From Candidatus Poriferisodalis sp. (GTDB lineage: Bacteria; Actinomycetota; Acidimicrobiia; Acidimicrobiales; Poriferisodalaceae), in contig NZ_OZ242344.1 in NCBI RefSeq assembly GCF_965208485.1, positions 648,067 through 712,066 on the forward strand: 64,000 bases of DNA, given 5' to 3'. Position 1 is the stretch's first letter. Each line of letters starts with the position of its first letter. The notes beneath the pieces are model-generated. The model was not told the DNA's origin. It made no database searches and saw nothing but the letters and a program-made list of their open reading frames with translations. The translations under genes were made by a program, and so were the position numbers. This document shows, piece by piece, positions 9,314-35,275 of the stretch.

Positions 9314-9420
9314 CGACGAGACCCTAACTGCGGGCTGCAGACGCGCATCGGCGTTCGCAGTAGGTTTCGGCGGCGAGGCGCATGACTTCGCAGCGCCGCT
9401 GAGCCTGACAGGGGATCACG

Positions 9421-10521
9421 ATGGAATTGGGACTGTTCACCATGCCGAGCCACCCGCCCGAGCGCGACCTGCGCGAAGGCTGGGAGTGGGACCTGCAGGT
9501 CATCGAATGGGCTGATGAGTACGGATTCGCCGAGGCGTGGATCGGTGAGCACCATGCCGCTAAGTGGGAGCCTCATCCTGCGCCTGACCTGCTGACGCTG
9601 GAGGCGCTGCGGCGCACGGAGAACATCCGCATCGGCCCCGGCGGTTTCCTGATGCCTTACTACCATCCTGCTGAGCTGGCCAACCGCATCTCGCTTCTGG
9701 ACCACATCTCAGAGGGCCGGCTGAACTTCGGGGTTGCTGCCAGCGGTCTGCCCAGCGACTGGGAGATGTTCGGCGTGGACGGCATGGCCGGCGAGAACCG
9801 AGAGATGACCCAGGAGTCGGTCGAGTTCATCCTGAACCTCTGGACCCAAGAGCCCGGCTGGACCCACGAGGGCAAGCACTGGAAGGGCTCGGTGCCCCAC
9901 GGCATGCCCGATCTGGACCTCGTGCAGCATCTCAAGCCGTTGCAGCAGCCGCACCCGCCGATTGCCGTGGCCGGGCTGAACTCGCCGTCCCCGACGCTGG
10001 AGATGGCGGGCGAGAAGGGCTGGATCCCGCTCAGCCTGAACCTCAACCCGCAATATGTGAGCGGACACTGGGATTCCTACGAAGCCGGCGCACGGCGCGC
10101 CGGGCGGGAGATCAGCCGCAGCGACTGGCGCATGGTGCGCGAAGTCTTCGTGGCGCCCACCGACGAGGAGGCTTGGGAGCACTCCTACGGCGGGATGATG
10201 GGCCGGATGATGACCGAGTACTTCATTCCGCTGCTCGGCGCGTTCGATTTCCACCAGTTCCTCATCGACGAGCGCAACCCGCCCGCCGACGGCGTAGTCA
10301 CCGTCGACTACTGCGCCCGCAACAACTGGCTCGTGGGCTCACCCGAGACCGTGGCAGCGTCAATCGAGAAGATCCACGCGGATGTCGGCGGCTTCGGTCA
10401 CCTGCTGCTGTTCTGCTTCGACTACTCCGAGACGCCCGAAAGCGCCGAATCATGGCGACGCTCGATGGAGCTGCTCGCCCACGACGTCATGCCGCGCGTG
10501 GCGCACCTCACCGGGGACTGA
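9421..10521 (+). CDS. LLM-class flavin-dependent oxidoreductase/monooxygenase
   Basis: 366-aa ORF: MELGLFTMPSHPP...AWIGEHH...RLNFGVAASG... Confidence 0.85.
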   Translation: MELGLFTMPSHPPERDLREGWEWDLQVIEWADEYGFAEAWIGEHHAAKWEPHPAPDLLTLEALRRTENIRIGPGGFLMPYYHPAELANRISLLDHISEGRLNFGVAASGLPSDWEMFGVDGMAGENREMTQESVEFILNLWTQEPGWTHEGKHWKGSVPHGMPDLDLVQHLKPLQQPHPPIAVAGLNSPSPTLEMAGEKGWIPLSLNLNPQYVSGHWDSYEAGARRAGREISRSDWRMVREVFVAPTDEEAWEHSYGGMMGRMMTEYFIPLLGAFDFHQFLIDERNPPADGVVTVDYCARNNWLVGSPETVAASIEKIHADVGGFGHLLLFCFDYSETPESAESWRRSMELLAHDVMPRVAHLTGD

Positions 10522-26442: not shown

Positions 26443-27615
26443 GTGCCGCTCGACGTCATCGGGATGATCGGCGTGTCGCCGCCCAAGGACGACTCGACCG
26501 TGCACGTCATCGAGGGCGGGCTGTCCCGCCAGTTCCTCGAGGACTTCAGCCGTGCTCACGACGAGGCCGGCTTCGACCTGGTGCTGGTGGGCTACACGTC
26601 GACCTCGGCCGACGGCTGGGCGGTGGCGACCCACGCCGCTTCGGTCACCAAGCGGCTCGGCTACCTCGTCGCGCACCGGCCCGGCTTCGTGGCGCCCACG
26701 CTGGCCGCCCGCAAGGCAGCCACCTTCGATCAGCTCAGCGGCGGCCGCTTCGCGCTGCACATCATCGCCGGGGCCAGCGACAAGGACAATCAGCGCGACG
26801 GCGACTACCTGCCGAAGGTCGACCGCTATGCCCGTGCGGGCGAGTACATCGACGTGATGCGCCGGACGTGGACGTCACCGGAGCCGTTCGACCACGAAGG
26901 GCCGTACTACCGATTCAGCAACGTACGCGCCGACGTGCAACCGCTTCAACAGCCGTCGCCCCCGATCTTCTTCGGAGGCTCCAGCGAAGAGGCATTGGAG
27001 ATGGGCGCTCAACGGTGCGACGTGTATGCCATTTACGCAGAGCCCCGGGCGGCCGTTGCCGAGCGCTTCGCTGACTTCCGCCACCGGGCCGCCGCATACG
27101 GACGCACGCCTCGGTTCTCGATCAGCGTGCGCCCGATCCTGGGCGACACCGAGGGCGAGGCGTGGGATCGAGCTGAACGCATTCTGGGCGGCATCGAGGC
27201 TGCGGGAACCGACAAGCTGACGGTGGCGGGCAGTCACCGGGGCAAGCCGTACGACCATGGCGGCGACCGGATGCTGTCCTATGCCGCCGCGAGCGATGTC
27301 CACGATGAGCGGCTGTGGCTCAAGATCGCCGAGGCCACCGGTGCTCCCGGCAATACGTCTTGTTTGGTGGGCACCGCCGAGCAGGTGGCCGACTCCATCC
27401 TGCGCTATTACGAACTGGGCCTGCCCCCCGGCGGTGGCCCTTCCGACATCGGCTACGTGCTGATCCGGGGATTCGACCCGTTCAACGACGCCGTGGACTT
27501 CGGCCGCGAGCTGATCCCCCGCATCAAGGCAGGCGCTGCCGAGCTCGATGCGCACAATGCTCCGACCAACTCCGACTCGGCAATGGCCAGCAAAGTTACC
27601 GCTGCCGCCGACTGA
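26443..27615 (+). CDS. LLM-class flavin-dependent monooxygenase (SsuD-like)
   Basis: GFDLVLVGYTS...RFALHIIAG...YARAGEYIDVMRRTW...PPIFFGGSS. Start is GTG at 26443 or ATG at 26464. Confidence 0.85.
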   Translation: MPLDVIGMIGVSPPKDDSTVHVIEGGLSRQFLEDFSRAHDEAGFDLVLVGYTSTSADGWAVATHAASVTKRLGYLVAHRPGFVAPTLAARKAATFDQLSGGRFALHIIAGASDKDNQRDGDYLPKVDRYARAGEYIDVMRRTWTSPEPFDHEGPYYRFSNVRADVQPLQQPSPPIFFGGSSEEALEMGAQRCDVYAIYAEPRAAVAERFADFRHRAAAYGRTPRFSISVRPILGDTEGEAWDRAERILGGIEAAGTDKLTVAGSHRGKPYDHGGDRMLSYAAASDVHDERLWLKIAEATGAPGNTSCLVGTAEQVADSILRYYELGLPPGGGPSDIGYVLIRGFDPFNDAVDFGRELIPRIKAGAAELDAHNAPTNSDSAMASKVTAAAD

Positions 27616-27686
27616 GCCTCCGCAGAGCCACGGCTAGCCTCCCGTGACATGAGTCGAGTAGCTCGCTCGAGTCGCGGAGCAGCCCA

Positions 27687-29156
27687 GTGAACTCCCAGGC
27701 TGCGGTAACCCCAGAGTTCCGTTTCCGTAATCTCGGGCCGATTGCCGAAGGCACCATTCAGTTGCGCCCGCTGACGATCCTGATCGGCAAGAACAACACC
27801 GGCAAGACGTACACGGCTCAGGCGATCTACGCCGCTCACAAGGCGCTCGAACGCGCGAACGGACCTGCAACGCCACCGCTCACACGCGACGAGTCGTTCG
27901 ACGTCATCAGCCTGATCAACCACGCGGCTACGGCTGGCGCCGAGCCGGCATCGTCGTTTGTCGGCAAGTTCCAAACATGGATCAGCTCAAGGCTCGAACG
28001 TGCGGGCCACAACCTCGCAGACCGCCTCGCCGTCTATTTCGACGTCGAGAAACTCAGCGAACTGAAGCGGTGGAGGACTGGCGGCGAACTTGATATCGCC
28101 GTGCATCGTCGACGCACCGAGACTGACTCGACCGTTCTCTTCTCGCTCTCCGGCGAACACGAAGGTTCTCCGCTGGACTCCATCGACCTCAGCGGCCTGC
28201 GCGAGACGCCTGTCGTAGAACTGCTTGACGACTTCCTCGCCGGTTCATCGGGCGCAGGGGCTGCGTCTCGCAGCGAGCTGCTACAGCGCAGGACGGCGTC
28301 AATGCTCGCCGACTACCTGTGGTACCGCCACCTTGTCCCCACATCCGGCCTCGGAGGCCAGGCGCACTATCTGCCCGCAGGACGATCGGGTTTGCTGGAG
28401 GCCTGGACCGATGTCGTGCGGATTCGGTTGGAACAGGACCGCGAGGGTCTTGCGCTCACGGGTCGGGAACCCGCCGCTCTTGGGGGCATCGCGCTCGATT
28501 TCCTCATCGAGCTCCAGCAGTTGACGAGTCCTCGCCCTCAGCGACGGGCGTGGCAGAAGCCTTTGAGACGCTCAGTACGAGTCGCTCCTGATATCCCCAC
28601 GGCAGCGTCGCATCTTGAGCGCCTCATCGGTGGGAGCGTCGTGGTTGCCAGAGGCCGCGAGCAGGTGCCGTCGTTGAGCTATCAGCATGGCAAAGAGGTC
28701 ATTCCGGTTCAGCGTGCCTCCTCCATGGTCGCCGAGCTCGCGCCGCTCATCAGATGGATCAGCGACGTGCTCGGCCCCAGAGACCTCTTGCTGATCGACG
28801 AGCCGGAAGCACACATGCATCCCGAGGCGGTGCTCGCAGTCGCGCAGACACTCGTGGCGCTCTCGCAAGCGGGTGTACGAGTGCTGTGCACAACCCACAG
28901 CACCGATTTCCTCCACCAAGTCTCGAACTGCATGCTTCGGGCGGCTCAGACACCGTCGCCGGATTCCGCGGACGCTCCATCGATCAGCGTCGACGACCTT
29001 GCTGTCTACCGATTCGAGCGCGGAGACCCCGAGCAAGGTTCGACTGTTACACCTGTCGAGGTCGATCCGGCCTGGGGCATTCCCGAAGACGAGTACGTAG
29101 CCGTGGCAGAACGCTTGGCCGACGAGACCGCACGGCTTCTCGGCGAAGCGCGGTGA
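27687..29156 (+). CDS. ABC/SMC-type AAA ATPase (AAA_21-like, defence-associated architecture)
   Basis: Walker A LIGKNNTGKTY. Near the C-terminus, LLLIDEPEAHMHPEAVL (Walker B/D-loop) and CTTHSTDFL (H-loop). A long insert lies between the two halves of the ATPase domain. Confidence 0.8.
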   Translation: MNSQAAVTPEFRFRNLGPIAEGTIQLRPLTILIGKNNTGKTYTAQAIYAAHKALERANGPATPPLTRDESFDVISLINHAATAGAEPASSFVGKFQTWISSRLERAGHNLADRLAVYFDVEKLSELKRWRTGGELDIAVHRRRTETDSTVLFSLSGEHEGSPLDSIDLSGLRETPVVELLDDFLAGSSGAGAASRSELLQRRTASMLADYLWYRHLVPTSGLGGQAHYLPAGRSGLLEAWTDVVRIRLEQDREGLALTGREPAALGGIALDFLIELQQLTSPRPQRRAWQKPLRRSVRVAPDIPTAASHLERLIGGSVVVARGREQVPSLSYQHGKEVIPVQRASSMVAELAPLIRWISDVLGPRDLLLIDEPEAHMHPEAVLAVAQTLVALSQAGVRVLCTTHSTDFLHQVSNCMLRAAQTPSPDSADAPSISVDDLAVYRFERGDPEQGSTVTPVEVDPAWGIPEDEYVAVAERLADETARLLGEAR

Positions 29157-29680
29157 GCTTCGACGCCGACCAACTGCTTTCTCAACACTCGGCCTGCGAG
29201 TGCAGGCTGGACCGATCGCCGCATTCGAATCGCATTGGTCCAGAGGAAACCAGCCCTGACGAGGCAATCCCGAACCACATCAGTAAGGACAACTGCACCC
29301 TCACGATCGAGGGGTTGATTGCTGCGTTTGATTGCGACGAGTGCGCCGCATTCGAGCCCGACGAACTCCGCCCTGACGCGATCGCACTTCGGGAATGCGA
29401 CGGCAGCAATCAGTGGATCGTCTCCGAAATGAAGCTCACAATGCGCGAACGTGCCGGTCGGCAAGCCGCCGCAGGCTTGGCCAAACTCGGCAACCATCCG
29501 CTCTATGCCGCCCAACTTGACTCAGCCGAGGTCGTCTTCGTAGTCAAGAGACGCCGCAAGAGTGACCGCACCATCATGCGGGCCATCGGGACCATCCGTG
29601 AAGGCCATTGGGTCGTCAATCCACTGCTGCTCGATTCTGGCAGTACTCATACCTGTCCAACGGCCGGATTGTTGGAGTAA
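29153..29680 (+). CDS. Small partner protein with a PD-(D/E)xK-like motif
   Basis: The GTG at 29153 overlaps the ATPase stop (GTGA). LRPDAIALRECDGSNQWIVSEMK gives PD...(17 aa)...ExK spacing. CxC and CxxC cysteine pairs lie upstream. No family recognised. Confidence 0.5.
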   Translation: MSFDADQLLSQHSACECRLDRSPHSNRIGPEETSPDEAIPNHISKDNCTLTIEGLIAAFDCDECAAFEPDELRPDAIALRECDGSNQWIVSEMKLTMRERAGRQAAAGLAKLGNHPLYAAQLDSAEVVFVVKRRRKSDRTIMRAIGTIREGHWVVNPLLLDSGSTHTCPTAGLLE

Positions 29681-29862
29681 GTCTTCGCCCCGGGGTCGGC
29701 GGCATTGGGTTGGGCCAATACGCGAGCGGCCGCCTCGTCGGCAAGACTGGATGAGGCAGCTGTGTACAGCGCGGCCGGGTTCCCGCCTCGCAGATGCGAT
29801 GGACACCGGATCGGTCACGTCGGCGCAGCAATTCCGAACGTTGACTGCAGAAGGCAAGGACC

Positions 29863-30654
29863 ATGCTCGATTTGGACCTGACCGGACGGACGGCGCTGGT
29901 GACCGGCGCTTCCAAGGGCATCGGCGAGGCCTCGGTGCGGCTGTTCGCTGATCATGGTGCCGCCGTGGCGTTCTGCGCCCGCGGCGCCGAAGCGGTGAAC
30001 GCGCTGGCTGCGTACGTGCCGCCGTCGGGATCGGGCTCGGTCCGCGGCTACACGGCGGACATGTCCGATGCCGACGCCACACAGGCATTCCTCGAGACAG
30101 CCACGGCCGATGTCGGGCCCGCCGACATCTTGGTCAACAACGTGGGCGCCTCCCCGTCGCGGAACTTCCTGTACATGTCCGACGACGACTGGACCGATCT
30201 GCACCAGCTCAACTTGATGTCGGCGGTGCGCTGCACCCGGTTCTGCCTGCCGCACATGCGCAAGCAGAAGTGGGGCCGGGTGATCATGATCGCCACCGGC
30301 GCTGCCTTCTCCCCTAACGCCGCGCTCATCGACTACGCCGCGACCAAGGCGGCCATGGTGGCCACCGCCAAGGCGCTGGCGGGCAAGTACGGCGCCGACA
30401 ACGTGCTCACCAACACCGTCATCCCCGGGCTCATCCGCACCGACATGTGGGAACGAGCGGCAGCCGAGATCGCTGAGGCCAACAACACCGACGCCGAGGC
30501 GATCTTCGCCCGCAATTCCACCGGAGTCCCCCAGGGCCGTTATGGCACTGCCGACGAGGTCGCCTCCGGCGTGGTTTTCCTGGCAAGCAACGCAGCGAAC
30601 TACGTCAACGGCACCTGCCTCACCATCGACGGCGGCGTCGGCACCCACGTCTGA
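29863..30654 (+). CDS. SDR-family oxidoreductase
   Basis: TGASKGIG, NNVG, YAATKAA. Confidence 0.9.
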   Translation: MLDLDLTGRTALVTGASKGIGEASVRLFADHGAAVAFCARGAEAVNALAAYVPPSGSGSVRGYTADMSDADATQAFLETATADVGPADILVNNVGASPSRNFLYMSDDDWTDLHQLNLMSAVRCTRFCLPHMRKQKWGRVIMIATGAAFSPNAALIDYAATKAAMVATAKALAGKYGADNVLTNTVIPGLIRTDMWERAAAEIAEANNTDAEAIFARNSTGVPQGRYGTADEVASGVVFLASNAANYVNGTCLTIDGGVGTHV

Positions 30655-30778
30655 CCTGAACACCTGTCTGCGTTGCTCTGAAACTGATCTGAGCCGCGGG
30701 CTAGCTTTCGGGGCGCACAGGCGCTGTACGGATCGGCGCCGACCTTGCCTACCTCACAGACCAAACAGGAGCACCGAC

Positions 30779-32017
30779 ATGGCGCACGCATACACCGACA
30801 AGGGCCTCGAGATGCAGGAGGCCGTGAAGTCGTTCATGGACGACCACATCTACCCCAACGAGGAGGAGTACAACGAGCAGTACGAAGAGCTCGTAGCCGC
30901 CGGGCAAGTGCACGCCACCCCGACAATCATGGAGAAGCTCAAGGCGGCGGCGCGCGAACGCGGCTTGTGGAACCTGTTCATCCCCCACCTCGACCCGCAG
31001 GCGCCGGGCACGAAGCTGTCCAACCTGGACTACTCGCCGATCTCCGAAGAGCTCGGCAAGGTGTCGTTCAGCTCCGAGGCGCTGAACTGCGCGGCGCCTG
31101 ACACCGGCAACATGGAGATTCTGAACCTGTACGGCTCCGAGCGGGTCAAGCAGCAGTACCTGGCACCGCTGCTGGAGGGGGAGTTCCGCTCGACCTTCTC
31201 GATGACCGAGCCTGAGGTGGCCAGCTCTGATGCCTCCAACATCCGCCTGCGGATCGACAAGGACGGCGATGAGTACGTGCTGAACGGTCGCAAGTGGTTC
31301 TCCTCGAACGCGCTGCGGCCCGAGTGCAAGGTGCTCATTGTGATGGGCAAGAACGACCCGGACGGGCCGCGCCATCGCCAGCAGTCGATGATCGTGGTGC
31401 CTCGCGACGCCGAGGGCATCACGGTGGAACGCGACCCGCTGGTGTTCGGCTACCACCACCGGGGCGGTCACCCCGAGTTGGTGTACGAGAACGTGAGGGT
31501 GCCCGAGGACCACATCCTGGGAGGCGAGGGCGAGGGCTTCGCCATCAGCCAGGCCCGGCTGGGCCCCGGACGCATCCACCACTGCATGCGTTCGATCGGC
31601 GTGGCCGAACGGGCGCTGGAGTACATGTGCAAGCGGGCGCTCGAACGCCACACCTTCGGCAAGTCGGTTGCCCAGCAAGGCCTCATCCAGGACTGGATCG
31701 CCGAAGCACGTATCGAGATCGACCAGGCCCGTGAGTACGTGCTGCATGTCGCACATCTGATGGACACCATCGGCAACAAGGCCGCCGCGCAGGAGATCTC
31801 CGGCATCAAGGTGGTGGTGCCCAACATGGCGCTGAAGATCATCGATCGGGCCATCCAGGTGCACGGCGCCAGCGGTGTCACCCAGTTCTTCCCGCTGGCC
31901 GAGATGTACGCCCAGATGCGGACGCTGCGGATCGCTGACGGCCCCGACGAGGTTCACAAGATGACCATCGCCCGCCGCGAGCTCCGCCGCCACGACCCCG
32001 ACTTCCGTATGGGCTAG
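30779..32017 (+). CDS. Acyl-CoA dehydrogenase
   Basis: 412 aa from the ATG at 30779. TEPEVASSDA, middle-domain and C-terminal blocks, ending ...[29 protein letters not shown]. Confidence 0.9.
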   Translation: MAHAYTDKGLEMQEAVKSFMDDHIYPNEEEYNEQYEELVAAGQVHATPTIMEKLKAAARERGLWNLFIPHLDPQAPGTKLSNLDYSPISEELGKVSFSSEALNCAAPDTGNMEILNLYGSERVKQQYLAPLLEGEFRSTFSMTEPEVASSDASNIRLRIDKDGDEYVLNGRKWFSSNALRPECKVLIVMGKNDPDGPRHRQQSMIVVPRDAEGITVERDPLVFGYHHRGGHPELVYENVRVPEDHILGGEGEGFAISQARLGPGRIHHCMRSIGVAERALEYMCKRALERHTFGKSVAQQGLIQDWIAEARIEIDQAREYVLHVAHLMDTIGNKAAAQEISGIKVVVPNMALKIIDRAIQVHGASGVTQFFPLAEMYAQMRTLRIADGPDEVHKMTIARRELRRHDPDFRMG

Positions 32018-32063
32018 GTACTGCCGCGGCGACAACTGACGATCGCCGGGCACACGGCGATCA

Positions 32064-33635
32064 TCACTCGGCTGGCGTTTCGCAGTACGGCAATCCGTAG
32101 CGGGTCAGCCACAGTTGCTCAAGATCTGCTCTGACCATCTCGCCGCCTGCCCACCCGTCAGGGGCCTCCTCGGTGAGTGCTGCGATGAGTCGGCAGCGGA
32201 CATCGTTCGCGCCCCGACCGTCCGCTGGCAGCACGGCGCTCGCGGCGACCATGCTCGTCAGTGCGTCGGCGTCGTTGCGGCGCCGAATCTCGGCTTGCTG
32301 CCAGTTCGCAAGCAGCGTCGCTGCCATCGCGAGTGCGAGTGCGATAGCGACTGTGCTCCTCAGCACGCGTTGGGCCGTCCAATTGAATGCGGCCCTGTGC
32401 AGCACGACCAAGCACGACGCGGCCACGAACGACCACCCGACCTGCGTGAGCAGCGTCTCGCGCCAAGAGACACCGATGGCGGGCTGGCGATTCTGCGTCC
32501 ATTCCGAGAGACCGGCGACAAGCGCCGAACCCACCGCTGTCGAGGTGCCGAGCAGCACCAGCGCCGCTGCGAGCCTGCCCTGTCTCTGATTCGCCCGCCG
32601 TGCATCAAACGGCGCTTTCGCAGTTCGCGCGAGAGCAGCAGTCACGAGGGCGACCGCGAATACGACGATCACGATGTATGAGTTGTCGCACAGATCGACG
32701 AATCCGAGATCGACACCAGCACGCTGCGAACGCTCCGACGCCTCTGCCCAGCCAAATAGGGGGAACCCGCTCCACAACCGTCCCAGCGTCGCGCCTGCCG
32801 CGGTGGACGACAGGCTGAGTGCCGAGCCGTCATAGCAGCCGCCGGAAGCACAGATGACGGCGATCACCGCTCGCGTTGGTACGAACACGACAGCGAACGC
32901 CACGGTGTGAATAAGCCATCGACGGGCTGCTGCGGTCCCCAGCAGGGCGCGAAACGGCATGGCCGCGGCAACAGCTCGACTCACTACGAACACCGCGGCG
33001 AGCACCGGGGTGAGATACATCAGGTCATAGAACGCCGCCGCTACTACGCCGCCTAGAGCCATCAAGAAGCGCTCGTGACCCCGTAGCGCCCGTCGTTCAA
33101 GGTCGCGGTCGCGGCAGATCATCAGCGCTATGACAAGCATGAGCGCTACCGAGCCTGCGAACATATGCGGGAACGCCCCCAAGGCGCCACCGCCACGGTT
33201 CGTGATCAGGACCGCAGCCAGGGCCAGCGGGTACAACGACACAAGCGACCCTGCCTGCACGTCAGCGGATCGCATCAATGCCCTGACGATCGCAGCAGCC
33301 GATAGCGCCACACACGCAGCCATGAGCAGCCGGATCCCGCCCAAGACCACGTGTGGAGGCAACGCAGTCGCTTCGCTCGCGTCATAGGCGAATGCGATGA
33401 CCAGCCACTCCCACAAGCGTCCGATCGGGCGGAAATTGCCGTGGTCGAAGAGATACGGCTCGATTCCTCGGATGACCTGACGCGCTGCTGCCACCGGGTT
33501 CGCCCCGCCGTGCAGCGGACGCGTGAACACCATGCGCCGTTCATCCCAATACAGGGCGAGCCCCGCCAACGGCAGCACCACCAGCACGCTCGGCAGGCAC
33601 GAAAGGACCGCGGAGTCGGGTCGCAGACGGAATCG
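32064..33635 (-). CDS. Polytopic membrane protein (>=10 predicted TM helices), 5' end probably cut by the IS1380 insertion
   Basis: A long run of hydrophobic segments. The upstream part of the 730-aa track ORF runs antisense through the IS1380 transposase and is not credible. Function unknown; glycosyltransferase-C-like topology is only a guess. Confidence 0.5.
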   Translation of the reverse strand, partial: RFRLRPDSAVLSCLPSVLVVLPLAGLALYWDERRMVFTRPLHGGANPVAAARQVIRGIEPYLFDHGNFRPIGRLWEWLVIAFAYDASEATALPPHVVLGGIRLLMAACVALSAAAIVRALMRSADVQAGSLVSLYPLALAAVLITNRGGGALGAFPHMFAGSVALMLVIALMICRDRDLERRALRGHERFLMALGGVVAAAFYDLMYLTPVLAAVFVVSRAVAAAMPFRALLGTAAARRWLIHTVAFAVVFVPTRAVIAVICASGGCYDGSALSLSSTAAGATLGRLWSGFPLFGWAEASERSQRAGVDLGFVDLCDNSYIVIVVFAVALVTAALARTAKAPFDARRANQRQGRLAAALVLLGTSTAVGSALVAGLSEWTQNRQPAIGVSWRETLLTQVGWSFVAASCLVVLHRAAFNWTAQRVLRSTVAIALALAMAATLLANWQQAEIRRRNDADALTSMVAASAVLPADGRGANDVRCRLIAALTEEAPDGWAGGEMVRADLEQLWLTRYGLPYCETPAE

Positions 33636-35275
33636 CTTAGCCCAGATCCATCGGTTTGGTTGGGCTGGTGGGGTTTGCGTCCACCAGAAAGGCCTGCTGG
33701 GGTGGCATTTTGCCGGTTGTGAGATCGCGGCGTGATGCCATGACGGGAGGCGCTTTCTGTGAGCGATGATACGCGGTTGTTGGACCGGGTCGTGGCAGTG
33801 TTCGACGTGGGCTCTTTGGTGGGGGACGCGGGTCTGCTGGCGGTGGGCACGCTGGCGGGCCGGTTGGGCTTGGAGGGCTTGATCGACGAGACTGTGCGCC
33901 CGCCTGCGGCGGGCCGCGGGTCGGGAGCGAAGGTGCTCACGGCGGTGTGCTCGATGCTGGTGGGGGGCTCTTTCTTTTCGGACGCGGACAGGCTGCGGGC
34001 CGGCTCGGCGGGGTCGGTGGTTGGGTTCGCGCCGGTGGCGCCGTCCACGTTGGGGACGTTCTTGCGGTCCTTCACGTGGGGTCATGTGCGTCAGCTGGAC
34101 CGCGTCCAGGAGCTGGCTTTGGGCCGCGCGTGGGACGCAGGCGCCGCCCCGGCGGCGGAACGGGTCACGGTCGATGTCGATTCCACGGTCGCGGTGGTGC
34201 ACAGCGACGCGAAGGGCGGCGCTGCATACGGGCACGGTGGGCGGCTGGGATATCACCCGCTGGTGGCTTCACGCGACGACACCGGCGAGATCGTGCACTC
34301 CCGGATGCGCAAGGGCTCCTCCCAGCGGGGCCATGTCCGCTTCTTCGCCGAGACCGTCAACCGGGTGCGCCGTCTCGCCCCGGACGCGGAGCTGACGGTG
34401 CGCGCGGACGCGGGGTTCTTGTCGTGGGGCCTGGTCGACAAGCTCGACGCGCTCGACGCCAGGTTCGTGATCGCTGTCGCCTCGAACCCCGCCGTCGGCA
34501 GGGCCGTCGCGGCCGTCGACGATGCGGACTGGACCCCGATCGGCTACACCGACGACGGCGAGGCCCAAGTCGCCGAAACGACGCTCACCAGCGCACGGCG
34601 GCCCAACCGCAAGCCCGAGCGCACGGTGCGGCTGGTGGTGCGCCGCACCCGCCTGGTCGGCGACCAGGCCGACCTGTTCCCCAACTGGCGCCACCACACA
34701 TTCGTCACCGACATCAGCGAAGCCGAACTCGACACCAAAGCAGCCGACGCCGCCTGCCGATCCCACGCACGCGTCGAGCTCGCCACCGCCGACCTCAAAG
34801 CCGGCGGCCTCGCCCACAGCCCCTCAGCCAGCTTCACCGCCAACGCCGCCTGGCTCGCCTGCGCCGCCTTGGCCCACAACATCGCACGCTGGACAGCACG
34901 CATCGGCCAAGTCCACGACCCCCGAAAGCTCACCGTTGGGGCCACCATCGCACGCCGCTTGCTCACCATGCCCGGCCGGCTCGTCAACCGCAGCGGCCGA
35001 CCCACCCTGCGGCTCCCGGCCCGACGGCCCTGGGCCGACACGTTCACCACAGCACTGCGACACATCCGCAACCTGCCCCAGCGCTGCTGAACAAACCCCA
35101 GCGCCACGCCACGCCGCGCAGCACACCCCCCGGGCGCAGCACACAAACCACCCCCCAAGCCGCCGCCGACCACCCACGCGTCCGCCCAGCCCTCACCCCG
35201 CCCCGACCCCAAACCGCACCACCGACATCCCACCCAACCCCACACCGCACACCCCACCGGTGGATCCGGGCTTAG
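33636..35275 (+). mobile_element. IS1380-family insertion sequence (~1.64 kb)
   Basis: Imperfect terminal inverted repeats: cttagcccagatccatcgg (33636-33654) versus the reverse complement of caccggtggatccgggcttag (35255-35275). They enclose the transposase gene. Confidence 0.7.
33759..35090 (+). CDS. IS1380-family transposase
   Basis: 443 aa. GDAGLLAVGTLAGRLGL..., GYHPLVASRDDTGEIVHSRMRKGSS, FTANAAWLACAALAHNIARW: blocks I recall from IS1380 transposases. Confidence 0.85.
   Translation: MSDDTRLLDRVVAVFDVGSLVGDAGLLAVGTLAGRLGLEGLIDETVRPPAAGRGSGAKVLTAVCSMLVGGSFFSDADRLRAGSAGSVVGFAPVAPSTLGTFLRSFTWGHVRQLDRVQELALGRAWDAGAAPAAERVTVDVDSTVAVVHSDAKGGAAYGHGGRLGYHPLVASRDDTGEIVHSRMRKGSSQRGHVRFFAETVNRVRRLAPDAELTVRADAGFLSWGLVDKLDALDARFVIAVASNPAVGRAVAAVDDADWTPIGYTDDGEAQVAETTLTSARRPNRKPERTVRLVVRRTRLVGDQADLFPNWRHHTFVTDISEAELDTKAADAACRSHARVELATADLKAGGLAHSPSASFTANAAWLACAALAHNIARWTARIGQVHDPRKLTVGATIARRLLTMPGRLVNRSGRPTLRLPARRPWADTFTTALRHIRNLPQRC

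Follow-up and report, generated by a model that had tools for sequence, protein, structure and literature searches.

An ABC ATPase and a small predicted nuclease encoded by overlapping genes in Candidatus Poriferisodalis: a probable distant relative of PD-T4-4, PDC-M47 and WonAB

What kind of system is formed by an ABC-type ATPase and a small overlapping partner gene that stand between metabolic genes: a new one, or a known one that has escaped recognition? The question is raised by a stretch of 64,000 nucleotides from Candidatus Poriferisodalis sp., of the Acidimicrobiia (contig NZ_OZ242344.1, positions 648,067 to 712,066), hereafter the window. A first-pass annotation, made from the sequence alone, described a 489-residue ATPase (gene A) with a split ABC domain and a 175-residue open reading frame (ORF; gene B) whose GTG start overlaps the ATPase stop (GTGA) and whose product carries CxC/CxxC pairs, RPD and SEMK motifs. 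All of these sequence statements are correct. It further proposed a two-gene module of ATPase and small nuclease with the logic of a defence system, a proposal that the present analysis supports. The pair is probably a translationally coupled operon of an OLD-like ABC ATPase and a small metal-dependent PD-(D/E)xK nuclease, which forms a distant sister clade of PD-T4-4, PDC-M47 and WonAB. It is a so far unrecognized relative of known anti-phage systems and not a new kind of system. The novelty lies in a partner that bears a His/Cys knuckle and an RPD motif and in a divergent ATPase insert; no new principle is involved. The evidence for each half of the pair is taken up first, then its kinship, and then the alternatives.

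The ATPase and its small partner

Gene A encodes an ABC-type ATPase of the AAA_15/AAA_21 kind. Walker A, Walker B with its catalytic Glu, and the H-loop His are present in the split order, with a long insert. The Pfam matches to AAA_15 (E-value 1.3e-15, 58.4 bits; cut-off 32.1) and AAA_21 (5.1e-15, 56.8 bits; cut-off 27) lie above their cut-offs. Walker B opens the segment LLLIDEPEAHMHP, i.e., residues 367–379. Invariance of ATPase residues was judged in an alignment of 24 homologues, in which a C-terminal block, W463-G-I-P-E-D-E, is likewise invariant. A RASSM block (residues 343–347) upstream of Walker B is conserved in the same alignment and could be the equivalent of the ABC signature motif. 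The ATPase has at least 256 homologues; among the matches listed, the closest with a named source belongs to Candidatus Poriferisodalis, which is a sponge-associated genus of the Acidimicrobiia. The nearest solved chains are the OLD-family nuclease 6p74 in PDB and PtuA of the retron/Septu systems.

Is gene B a gene at all? Its GTG start codon lies inside the TGA stop of gene A, and the GTGA overlap suggests translational coupling of the two. An overlap of the same form, NTGA (GTGA, ATGA or TTGA), joins ATPase and partner in 14 other loci of the clade, and the position directly behind the ATPase homologue is conserved in other phyla. Fourteen close homologues of gene B have 172–178 residues and are 71–94% identical to it; one of these, from an Acidimicrobiaceae metagenome-assembled genome (MAG), is annotated merely as a hypothetical protein. 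Among 1.84 billion cluster representatives, a profile search detected 57 relatives at E ≤ 1e-3, mostly of 145–175 residues. The ratio of nonsynonymous to synonymous substitution (dN/dS), calculated against two orthologous loci, is 0.10–0.15 for the ATPase and 0.18–0.29 for gene B, versus 0.04–0.18 for the flanking enzymes. These are genuine genes, and purifying selection acts on both. The idea of a chance reading frame in a GC-rich genome was rejected on account of the conservation, the dN/dS values and the conserved overlap. The small ORF, whose coding potential and conservation the first-pass annotation had regarded as decisive, therefore stands, with homologues of 145–178 residues.

Gene callers missed the small partner gene in two of the four loci examined. 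In the public annotation it is uncalled at L086:9452-9949 and at L088:9482-9994, where the family hidden Markov model (HMM) matches with E-values of 1e-41 to 1e-42. Counts of the family in protein databases are therefore probably too low.

The motifs of the gene B product are C15-E-C17, C61-D-E-C64, R73-P-D75 and E92-M-K94; 16 residues separate D75 from E92. Their conservation was followed in an alignment of 42 partner sequences that are 21–86% identical to the window protein. D62, P74, D75 and E92 are invariant, and H12, C17, C61, C64, F67, W88, K94, Q104 and G108 are each kept in 90% or more of the sequences. Among 78 aligned partner ORFs, D75 is kept in most and the pattern D...ExK...Q in nearly all. 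An AlphaFold2 model based on 15 close homologues was discarded (predicted local distance difference test score, pLDDT, of 42), and the 42-sequence alignment was used instead, giving a pLDDT of 89.9 and a predicted TM-score of 0.86. In this model D75 opens a strand (residues 76–82), ExK closes a second strand (85–94), and a helix (100–114, with Q104) and a third strand (124–131) follow. The order of the modelled elements is that of the canonical restriction-endonuclease (REase) core.

Nearly all of the best Foldseek matches of the model in PDB have the REase fold. They include the small subunit of R.BspD6I, EcoO109I, the FokI cleavage domain (probability 0.90–0.95), Card1, EndoMS, BamHI, Can2 and Cap4; from a viral library, a phage protein named 'Restriction endonuclease' was retrieved with a probability of 0.97. 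Direct sequence searches with gene B found nothing at E ≤ 1 in Pfam, PADLOC, NCBIfam or PHROGs, and among PDB sequences just unrelated proteins (E 0.48–0.59). When the 42 members were scanned singly, every family matched by two or more of them was a PD-(D/E)xK family, all matches being sub-threshold. The recurrent weak matches, made by two to eight of the 42, are to PDC-M47B (eight members, best E 1.3e-3; another PDC-M47B model, 2.7e-4), VRR_NUC (five members), SduA/DUF4263 and HSDR_N_2. Single members matched PD-T4-4_B (0.024), REase_II, UL24 and Hjc, plus scattered unrelated families. Gene B is best read as encoding a divergent PD-(D/E)xK nuclease, i.e., a predicted nuclease of the REase fold, and the retention of D, ExK and Q across most partners of the superfamily argues for catalysis. 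The earlier guess of such a fold is thus upheld: the residues that it singled out, D75 and E92-x-K94, are conserved in the family, and the model retrieves almost only REase-fold proteins.

Kinship with known ATPase–nuclease systems

To place the pair, the ATPase alignment was scanned against GTDB, one genome per species, and the flanks of the best 80 loci, drawn from many phyla, were searched for partners. In 75 of the 80 loci an ORF of 82–223 residues (mostly 140–200; one outlier has 491) starts at or a few bases from the ATPase stop; in most loci the two genes are separated by a short gap or overlap slightly. The partner HMM matches 31 of these 75 ORFs directly and 66 after two iterations. 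Single linkage by BLAST unites 58 of 76 partners, that of the window included. The divergences of ATPase and partner are correlated (r = 0.76; 0 of 2000 permutations). ATPase and partner are inherited together as a unit across phyla. The orthologous loci L001–L004, which share the window's flanking genes, were rejected as independent evidence of co-occurrence. The taxa that carry the pair are Actinomycetota, Chloroflexota, Acidobacteriota, Proteobacteria and one archaeal contig, and this patchy distribution across phyla fits horizontal transfer.

MAGs named for sponge symbionts are prominent among the best 80 loci: Poriferisodalis, Poriferisocius, Spongiisociaceae, Poribacteria, Poriferihabitaceae and Porisulfidus. 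MAGs of Dehalococcoidia, Vicinamibacterales, Caldilineaceae and Aldehydirespirator, of unstated source, are also common. The prominence of sponge symbionts may reflect the composition of the database and closeness to the query, not biology.

Which known system does the pair resemble most? PD-T4-4_A tops the 115 PADLOC matches of the window ATPase (109.6 bits), matched in two partial stretches; the better one aligns residues 305–417 with positions 268–378 of the 460-position profile. By E-value, PD-T4-4_A (5.3e-32 and 1.4e-22) and PDC-M47A (8.7e-21) rank ahead of NsnB, Old (2e-19), HEC-02A, AriA (7e-18) and GajA (1e-12). Since PADLOC does not recognize the partner, its PD-T4-4 and PDC-M47 models would recognize the ATPase alone, and the pair would be reported as neither.

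The partner is linked to known systems by intermediates in the iterated family and by profile comparison in which the same catalytic columns align. The 66 iterated partners include proteins that PADLOC itself calls PD-T4-4_B (1e-11 to 1e-12) or PDC-M47B (3e-56), the latter being the partner in locus L072 (3.3e-56). Comparison of independently built alignments with hhalign joined the window partner's family to PD-T4-4_B-like proteins (E 8.9e-5, probability 60%), with D75, ExK and Q104 falling on D, ELK and Q, and to PDC-M47B-like partners (E 1.4e-4 over 66 columns), again with D, ExK and Q aligned.

PD-T4-4 is an experimentally selected defence system from E. coli ECOR58, where it lies on an element like an integrative and conjugative element (Vassallo et al. 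2022). Both PADLOC and DefenseFinder list it, with the components PD-T4-4_A and PD-T4-4_B. By published description it consists of a P-loop NTPase and a PD-(D/E)xK nuclease and forms higher-order complexes. The window pair shares with it a co-oriented ABC/AAA_15–AAA_21 ATPase followed by a small (~160–210 residues) PD-(D/E)xK protein, the adjacent A-then-B order (found in the same 75 of 80 loci), the top PADLOC score of its ATPase, and the D...ExK...Q columns common to its partner and PD-T4-4_B-like proteins. The differences are as follows. The window partner has RPD in place of the (R/K)CD of its relatives, and its His/Cys cluster is absent from PD-T4-4_B-like proteins. The window ATPase matches PD-T4-4_A in the Walker A and C-terminal parts alone; thus, its central insert differs. 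The window clade occurs in Acidimicrobiia and Chloroflexota symbionts, whereas PD-T4-4 was found on enterobacterial mobile elements. True PD-T4-4 pairs served as calibration: a tblastn search of plasmids and phages with the window ATPase found just distant, partial matches, all of them to true PD-T4-4, in a P2-like Vibrio phage (A, 6e-185; B, 6.5e-18) and on a Bernardetia plasmid (A, 1.9e-99; B, 1.1e-12). In the temperate Vibrio phage 1.202.O (NC_048066.1) the pair (L089:2014-5777) lies between repressor and integrase, the same kind of position as that of WonAB in the WASA-1 prophage.

PDC-M47, a phage defence candidate in PADLOC with A and B components, has the same architecture. The window ATPase matches PDC-M47A partially, and PDC-M47B is the model that the partner family matches most often, if weakly; all of the family's matches are sub-threshold, and the window protein itself has none. 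PDC-M47 is a candidate system only, and a search of the available literature found no paper that mentions it.

WonAB, from the WASA-1 prophage of V. cholerae (AWB73975.1 and AWB73976.1), is a two-gene operon of an OLD-type ABC ATPase and a novel REase-fold nuclease. Its defence requires both genes, the ATPase motifs (K34, R182, E300 and H333) and the nuclease lysine K71. Its mode of action is abortive infection, which sets in once the phage DNA has started to replicate, and WonB is predicted to dock on a C-terminal extension of WonA. Compared by published description only, the window pair is likewise a two-gene operon of an OLD-type ABC ATPase and a small, variant PD-(D/E)xK nuclease. Judged from motif order and not from an alignment, K40, R233, E372 and H404 of the window ATPase would correspond to the WonA motifs, and the window clade also has a conserved C-terminal ATPase extension. 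WonAB homologues are reported mainly in Gram-negative bacteria, whereas the members of the window clade belong to Actinomycetota and Chloroflexota, and the description of WonB mentions no His/Cys cluster. The WonAB authors state that the system resembles PD-T4-4 and link it to an 'OLD-ABC ATPase + novel REase' operon present in ~1% of genomes, and it is through this statement that the link to WonAB is argued. No structure has been solved for the PD-T4-4/PDC-M47/WonAB class.

Gabija, PARIS, Septu/retron PtuAB and the class 1 and 2 OLD systems share with the pair the ATPase superfamily and the logic of ATPase sensor plus nuclease effector. Their ATPase similarity is confined to the region from Walker B to the H-loop, and their effectors differ: Toprim in Gabija, PARIS and OLD, and HNH in Septu, versus a predicted REase fold in the window partner. 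The first-pass annotation had held that known pairs use only HNH, Toprim or helicase partners, and that gene B resembles none of them. The former statement is out of date, as PD-T4-4, PDC-M47 and WonAB share the architecture of the window pair. The latter does not hold either, gene B being a remote homologue of the B proteins of PD-T4-4 and PDC-M47 by iterated HMM search and hhalign.

The His/Cys cluster and the RPD motif are confined to about 24 loci of the aligned partners, the sister groups having (R/K)CD and no knuckle. Knuckle-bearing loci occur in Acidimicrobiia, Dehalococcoidia, one Thermomicrobiales MAG and one short contig binned as Thermoproteota. H12, C15, C17, C61 and C64 would form a putative structural metal site, for Zn or possibly Fe-S. 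D62 is also retained in many relatives without the cysteines and may therefore be an extra acidic residue of the active site, as judged from the sequences. It is conceivable, but unlikely, that the knuckle-bearing clade is a functionally distinct branch, in which the putative Zn/Fe-S site gives the nuclease a new regulatory input or substrate. Its fixed chromosomal place among metabolic genes in sponge symbionts like Ca. Poriferisodalis could then mean that it has been co-opted for symbiosis or genome maintenance and no longer serves classical phage defence.

Three further observations concern variants of the pair. The Thermoproteota contig (L015; JALZGI010000152.1, 4 kb) carries a full knuckle-type pair, which may result from transfer between domains or from faulty binning. 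A second, paralogous pair is found in Candidatus Poriferisodalis sp. at L055:6001-7970 (NZ_OZ240249.1); it is of the (M/R)CD type and has no His/Cys knuckle, its ATPase is 28% identical to that of the window, and its partner matches no PADLOC model. Finally, two complete systems adjoin at L009:3426-7862 (Spongiisociaceae MAG, divergent) and at L039:3293-7943 (Alphaproteobacteria MAG, tandem).

How might such a pair work? The scheme that follows is modelled on WonAB, PD-T4-4 and other ABC-ATPase/nuclease systems, and in it a role of the window pair in phage defence is presumed, as are the A–B complex, its activation and its substrate. The ATPase would dimerize head to tail around two ATP sites, and its conserved C-terminal extension (WGIPEDE) would hold and restrain the nuclease. 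Either a phage-derived cue that the ATPase senses or an altered ATP cycle would license the nuclease. The nuclease would then cut nucleic acid, DNA or possibly RNA, and infection would be stopped, probably at the cost of the infected cell.

Alternative explanations and the setting of the locus

Several results weigh against the pair being a metal-dependent nuclease system related to PD-T4-4. The structural matches of gene B are weak (Foldseek E 0.008–0.1 for the top matches and 0.017–0.2 for the best ones in PDB; TM-score ~0.3), and the catalytic K or E is missing in a few superfamily members. The hhalign links are modest, with probabilities of 52–60% over 38–66 columns, and the window partner matches none of the PD-T4-4_B and PDC-M47B models in PADLOC (E > 1). 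The window ATPase scores 110 bits on PD-T4-4_A in two stretches, versus full-length scores of 332 bits (Bernardetia plasmid) and 614 bits (Vibrio phage) for true members. Purified EcPD-T4-4 cleaved none of 11 DNA substrates in vitro, so that not even the reference system is proven to be a DNA nuclease. Finally, in the window lineage the pair has a fixed site within a metabolic gene cluster that is itself conserved, and its immediate neighbours include neither defence nor mobile genes; a variable defence island typically looks different.

This last point sustains the most serious rival, namely, that the pair is a domesticated or housekeeping module for genome maintenance (repair or recombination) or for control of resident mobile elements. 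The upstream neighbour is a luciferase-like monooxygenase (Bac_luciferase, 1e-61), and downstream lie a short-chain dehydrogenase/reductase (SDR; adh_short, 9e-48) and an acyl-CoA dehydrogenase. The order in close relatives is the same as in the window: P450, monooxygenase, ATPase, partner, SDR and acyl-CoA dehydrogenase. The first-pass annotation described the module as wedged between unrelated metabolic genes; this is true of the window, but the position is conserved in all close relatives (71–94% partner identity), and the locus is not a variable island here. Such constancy, the purifying selection on both genes and the lack of flanking defence genes in the window count in favour of a housekeeping role. 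ABC/SMC-type ATPases also work with nucleases in DNA repair, as in Rad50–Mre11 and RecF/RecN.

Beyond the close relatives, the picture changes. None of the window's flanking genes accompanies the pair in the distant loci, where the neighbours are often defence or mobile genes. One such locus has a set of Hypoth_Ymh, SNF2 helicase, DUF1156 and DUF7680 genes that looks DISARM-like; a second has HipAB, AAA_14/DUF4143 and a type ISP restriction enzyme; and a third (L087) has Gabija, an AAA_21/DUF3226 pair and an insertion sequence, the partner gene being gone. These defence-rich or mobile contexts speak against housekeeping, as do the patchy distribution across phyla, the top scores of the ATPase on models of defence systems and not on repair ATPases, and the faster protein evolution of the pair, which is 71–84% identical to its orthologues where most neighbours are 83–99% identical. 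We regard a housekeeping role as unlikely. In L087, an ATPase homologue with 50% identity lies beside the Gabija operon and is followed by a 367-nucleotide gap (9416-9783) in which every frame is full of stops, suggesting that this ATPase is decayed or stands alone.

A second rival is an addiction module akin to toxin–antitoxin (TA) systems, i.e., a selfish pair in which the ATPase restrains a nuclease toxin and which persists by post-segregational killing. The Pfam description of AAA_21 reads 'putative AbiEii toxin, Type IV TA system', one homologue adjoins HipAB, as just noted, and one ATPase homologue has lost its partner. In WonAB, the nuclease protein is lost when the ATPase is inactivated, an indication of tight coupling. 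Against this, the relatives that have been studied, PD-T4-4 and WonAB, protect against phage, and the stable chromosomal synteny of the window lineage needs no addiction function. A TA reading and defence by abortive infection are, moreover, not mutually exclusive. Addiction as the explanation of the pair is decidedly unlikely.

Alternatively, gene B might encode no nuclease at all but a His/Cys metal-binding adaptor or regulator of the ATPase, in which the D/ExK motif is a structural relic. Such a reading would accommodate the lack of a significant direct match to any nuclease family, the weakness of the structural matches, the loss of K94 or E92 in a few relatives and the failure of EcPD-T4-4 to cleave DNA in vitro. 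It sits poorly with the 42-sequence alignment, where D75 and E92 never vary and K94 and Q104 hardly do, with the retention of D, ExK and Q in most partners of the superfamily, and with the leading structural and weak HMM matches all belonging to one fold class, PD-(D/E)xK. In addition, the K71A mutation in the nuclease site of WonB abolishes defence. A non-nuclease role is very unlikely.

That the pair is a categorically new defence system, unrelated to named ones, is scarcely credible: the failure of PADLOC, Pfam, NCBIfam and PHROGs to recognize the partner speaks for it, but the ATPase matches PD-T4-4_A and PDC-M47A best, intermediate sequences and a profile comparison that aligns the catalytic columns tie the partner to their B proteins, and an ABC ATPase followed by an overlapping small REase-fold gene has already been published (PD-T4-4, WonAB and the 'OLD-ABC ATPase + novel REase' operon).

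The features of the pair, the probable relative of PD-T4-4, are collected in Table 1.

Table 1. Positions of the two genes and their motifs in the window.
Feature	Coordinates	Strand	Evidence and conservation
Gene A, 489-residue ABC-type ATPase (AAA_15/AAA_21, OLD-like)	27687..29156	+	ORF, Pfam, PADLOC, homologues, dN/dS
Walker A/P-loop GKNNTGKT, residues 34–41 (K40)	27786..27809	+	Sequence; G34, N36, N37, G39, K40 and T41 invariant
Walker B LLLIDEPE, residues 367–374 (D371, E372)	28785..28808	+	Sequence; L367, D371, E372, P373 and E374 invariant
H-loop TTHS, residues 402–405 (H404)	28890..28901	+	Sequence; T403, H404 and S405 invariant
GTGA start/stop overlap of genes A and B	29153..29156	+	Read from sequence
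Gene B, 175-residue predicted PD-(D/E)xK nuclease with N-terminal His/Cys knuckle	29153..29680	+	Translation, homologues, alignment, AlphaFold2, Foldseek, dN/dS
H12-x2-C15-x-C17, first half of His/Cys cluster	29186..29203	+	H12 and C17 in at least 90% of 42 sequences
C61-D62-x-C64, second half of Cys cluster	29333..29344	+	D62 invariant; C61 and C64 in at least 90%
R73-P74-D75, 'PD' element of the nuclease motif	29369..29377	+	P74 and D75 invariant; predicted strand 76–82 starts here
E92-M93-K94, '(D/E)xK' element	29426..29434	+	E92 invariant; end of predicted strand 85–94

The G+C content of the window is ~65–70%. Over the pair and the next genes (27500-33500) it is 0.61–0.66, versus 0.68–0.73 upstream. 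About 4 kb downstream of the pair, a DDE transposase ORF (33759-35090, plus strand; Pfam DDE_Tnp_1_4, 8e-36) coincides with strong swings of GC and AT skew. The transposase is missing from the orthologous loci L001–L003 and is thus a lineage-specific insertion. Between the acyl-CoA dehydrogenase and the transposase lies a long hydrophobic ORF of at least 478 codons on the minus strand (32064-33500, extending to 34256), which has no Pfam match and is not found at the corresponding position in L001–L003. The window contains no tRNA gene that might mark an integration site. A scan for sigma-70 promoters and intrinsic terminators around the operon gave nothing above shuffled expectation, a result that is uninformative for an actinobacterial-type genome of 65% G+C.

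Meaning for the ATPase–nuclease class

The finding extends the class of ABC ATPase plus small REase beyond proteobacterial mobile elements, to Acidimicrobiia, Chloroflexota, Acidobacteriota and other largely sponge-associated, uncultured lineages. It also exposes a detection gap: the PADLOC models miss the nuclease half of the pair in these lineages, and the system therefore goes unreported. D62, D75, E92, K94, Q104 and the His/Cys cluster are targets for mutagenesis and, together with the alignment and the model, offer the basis for a profile that would close this gap. The value of the pair lies in its annotation and in its being a new natural variant for comparative work on a class whose mechanism is unsolved.

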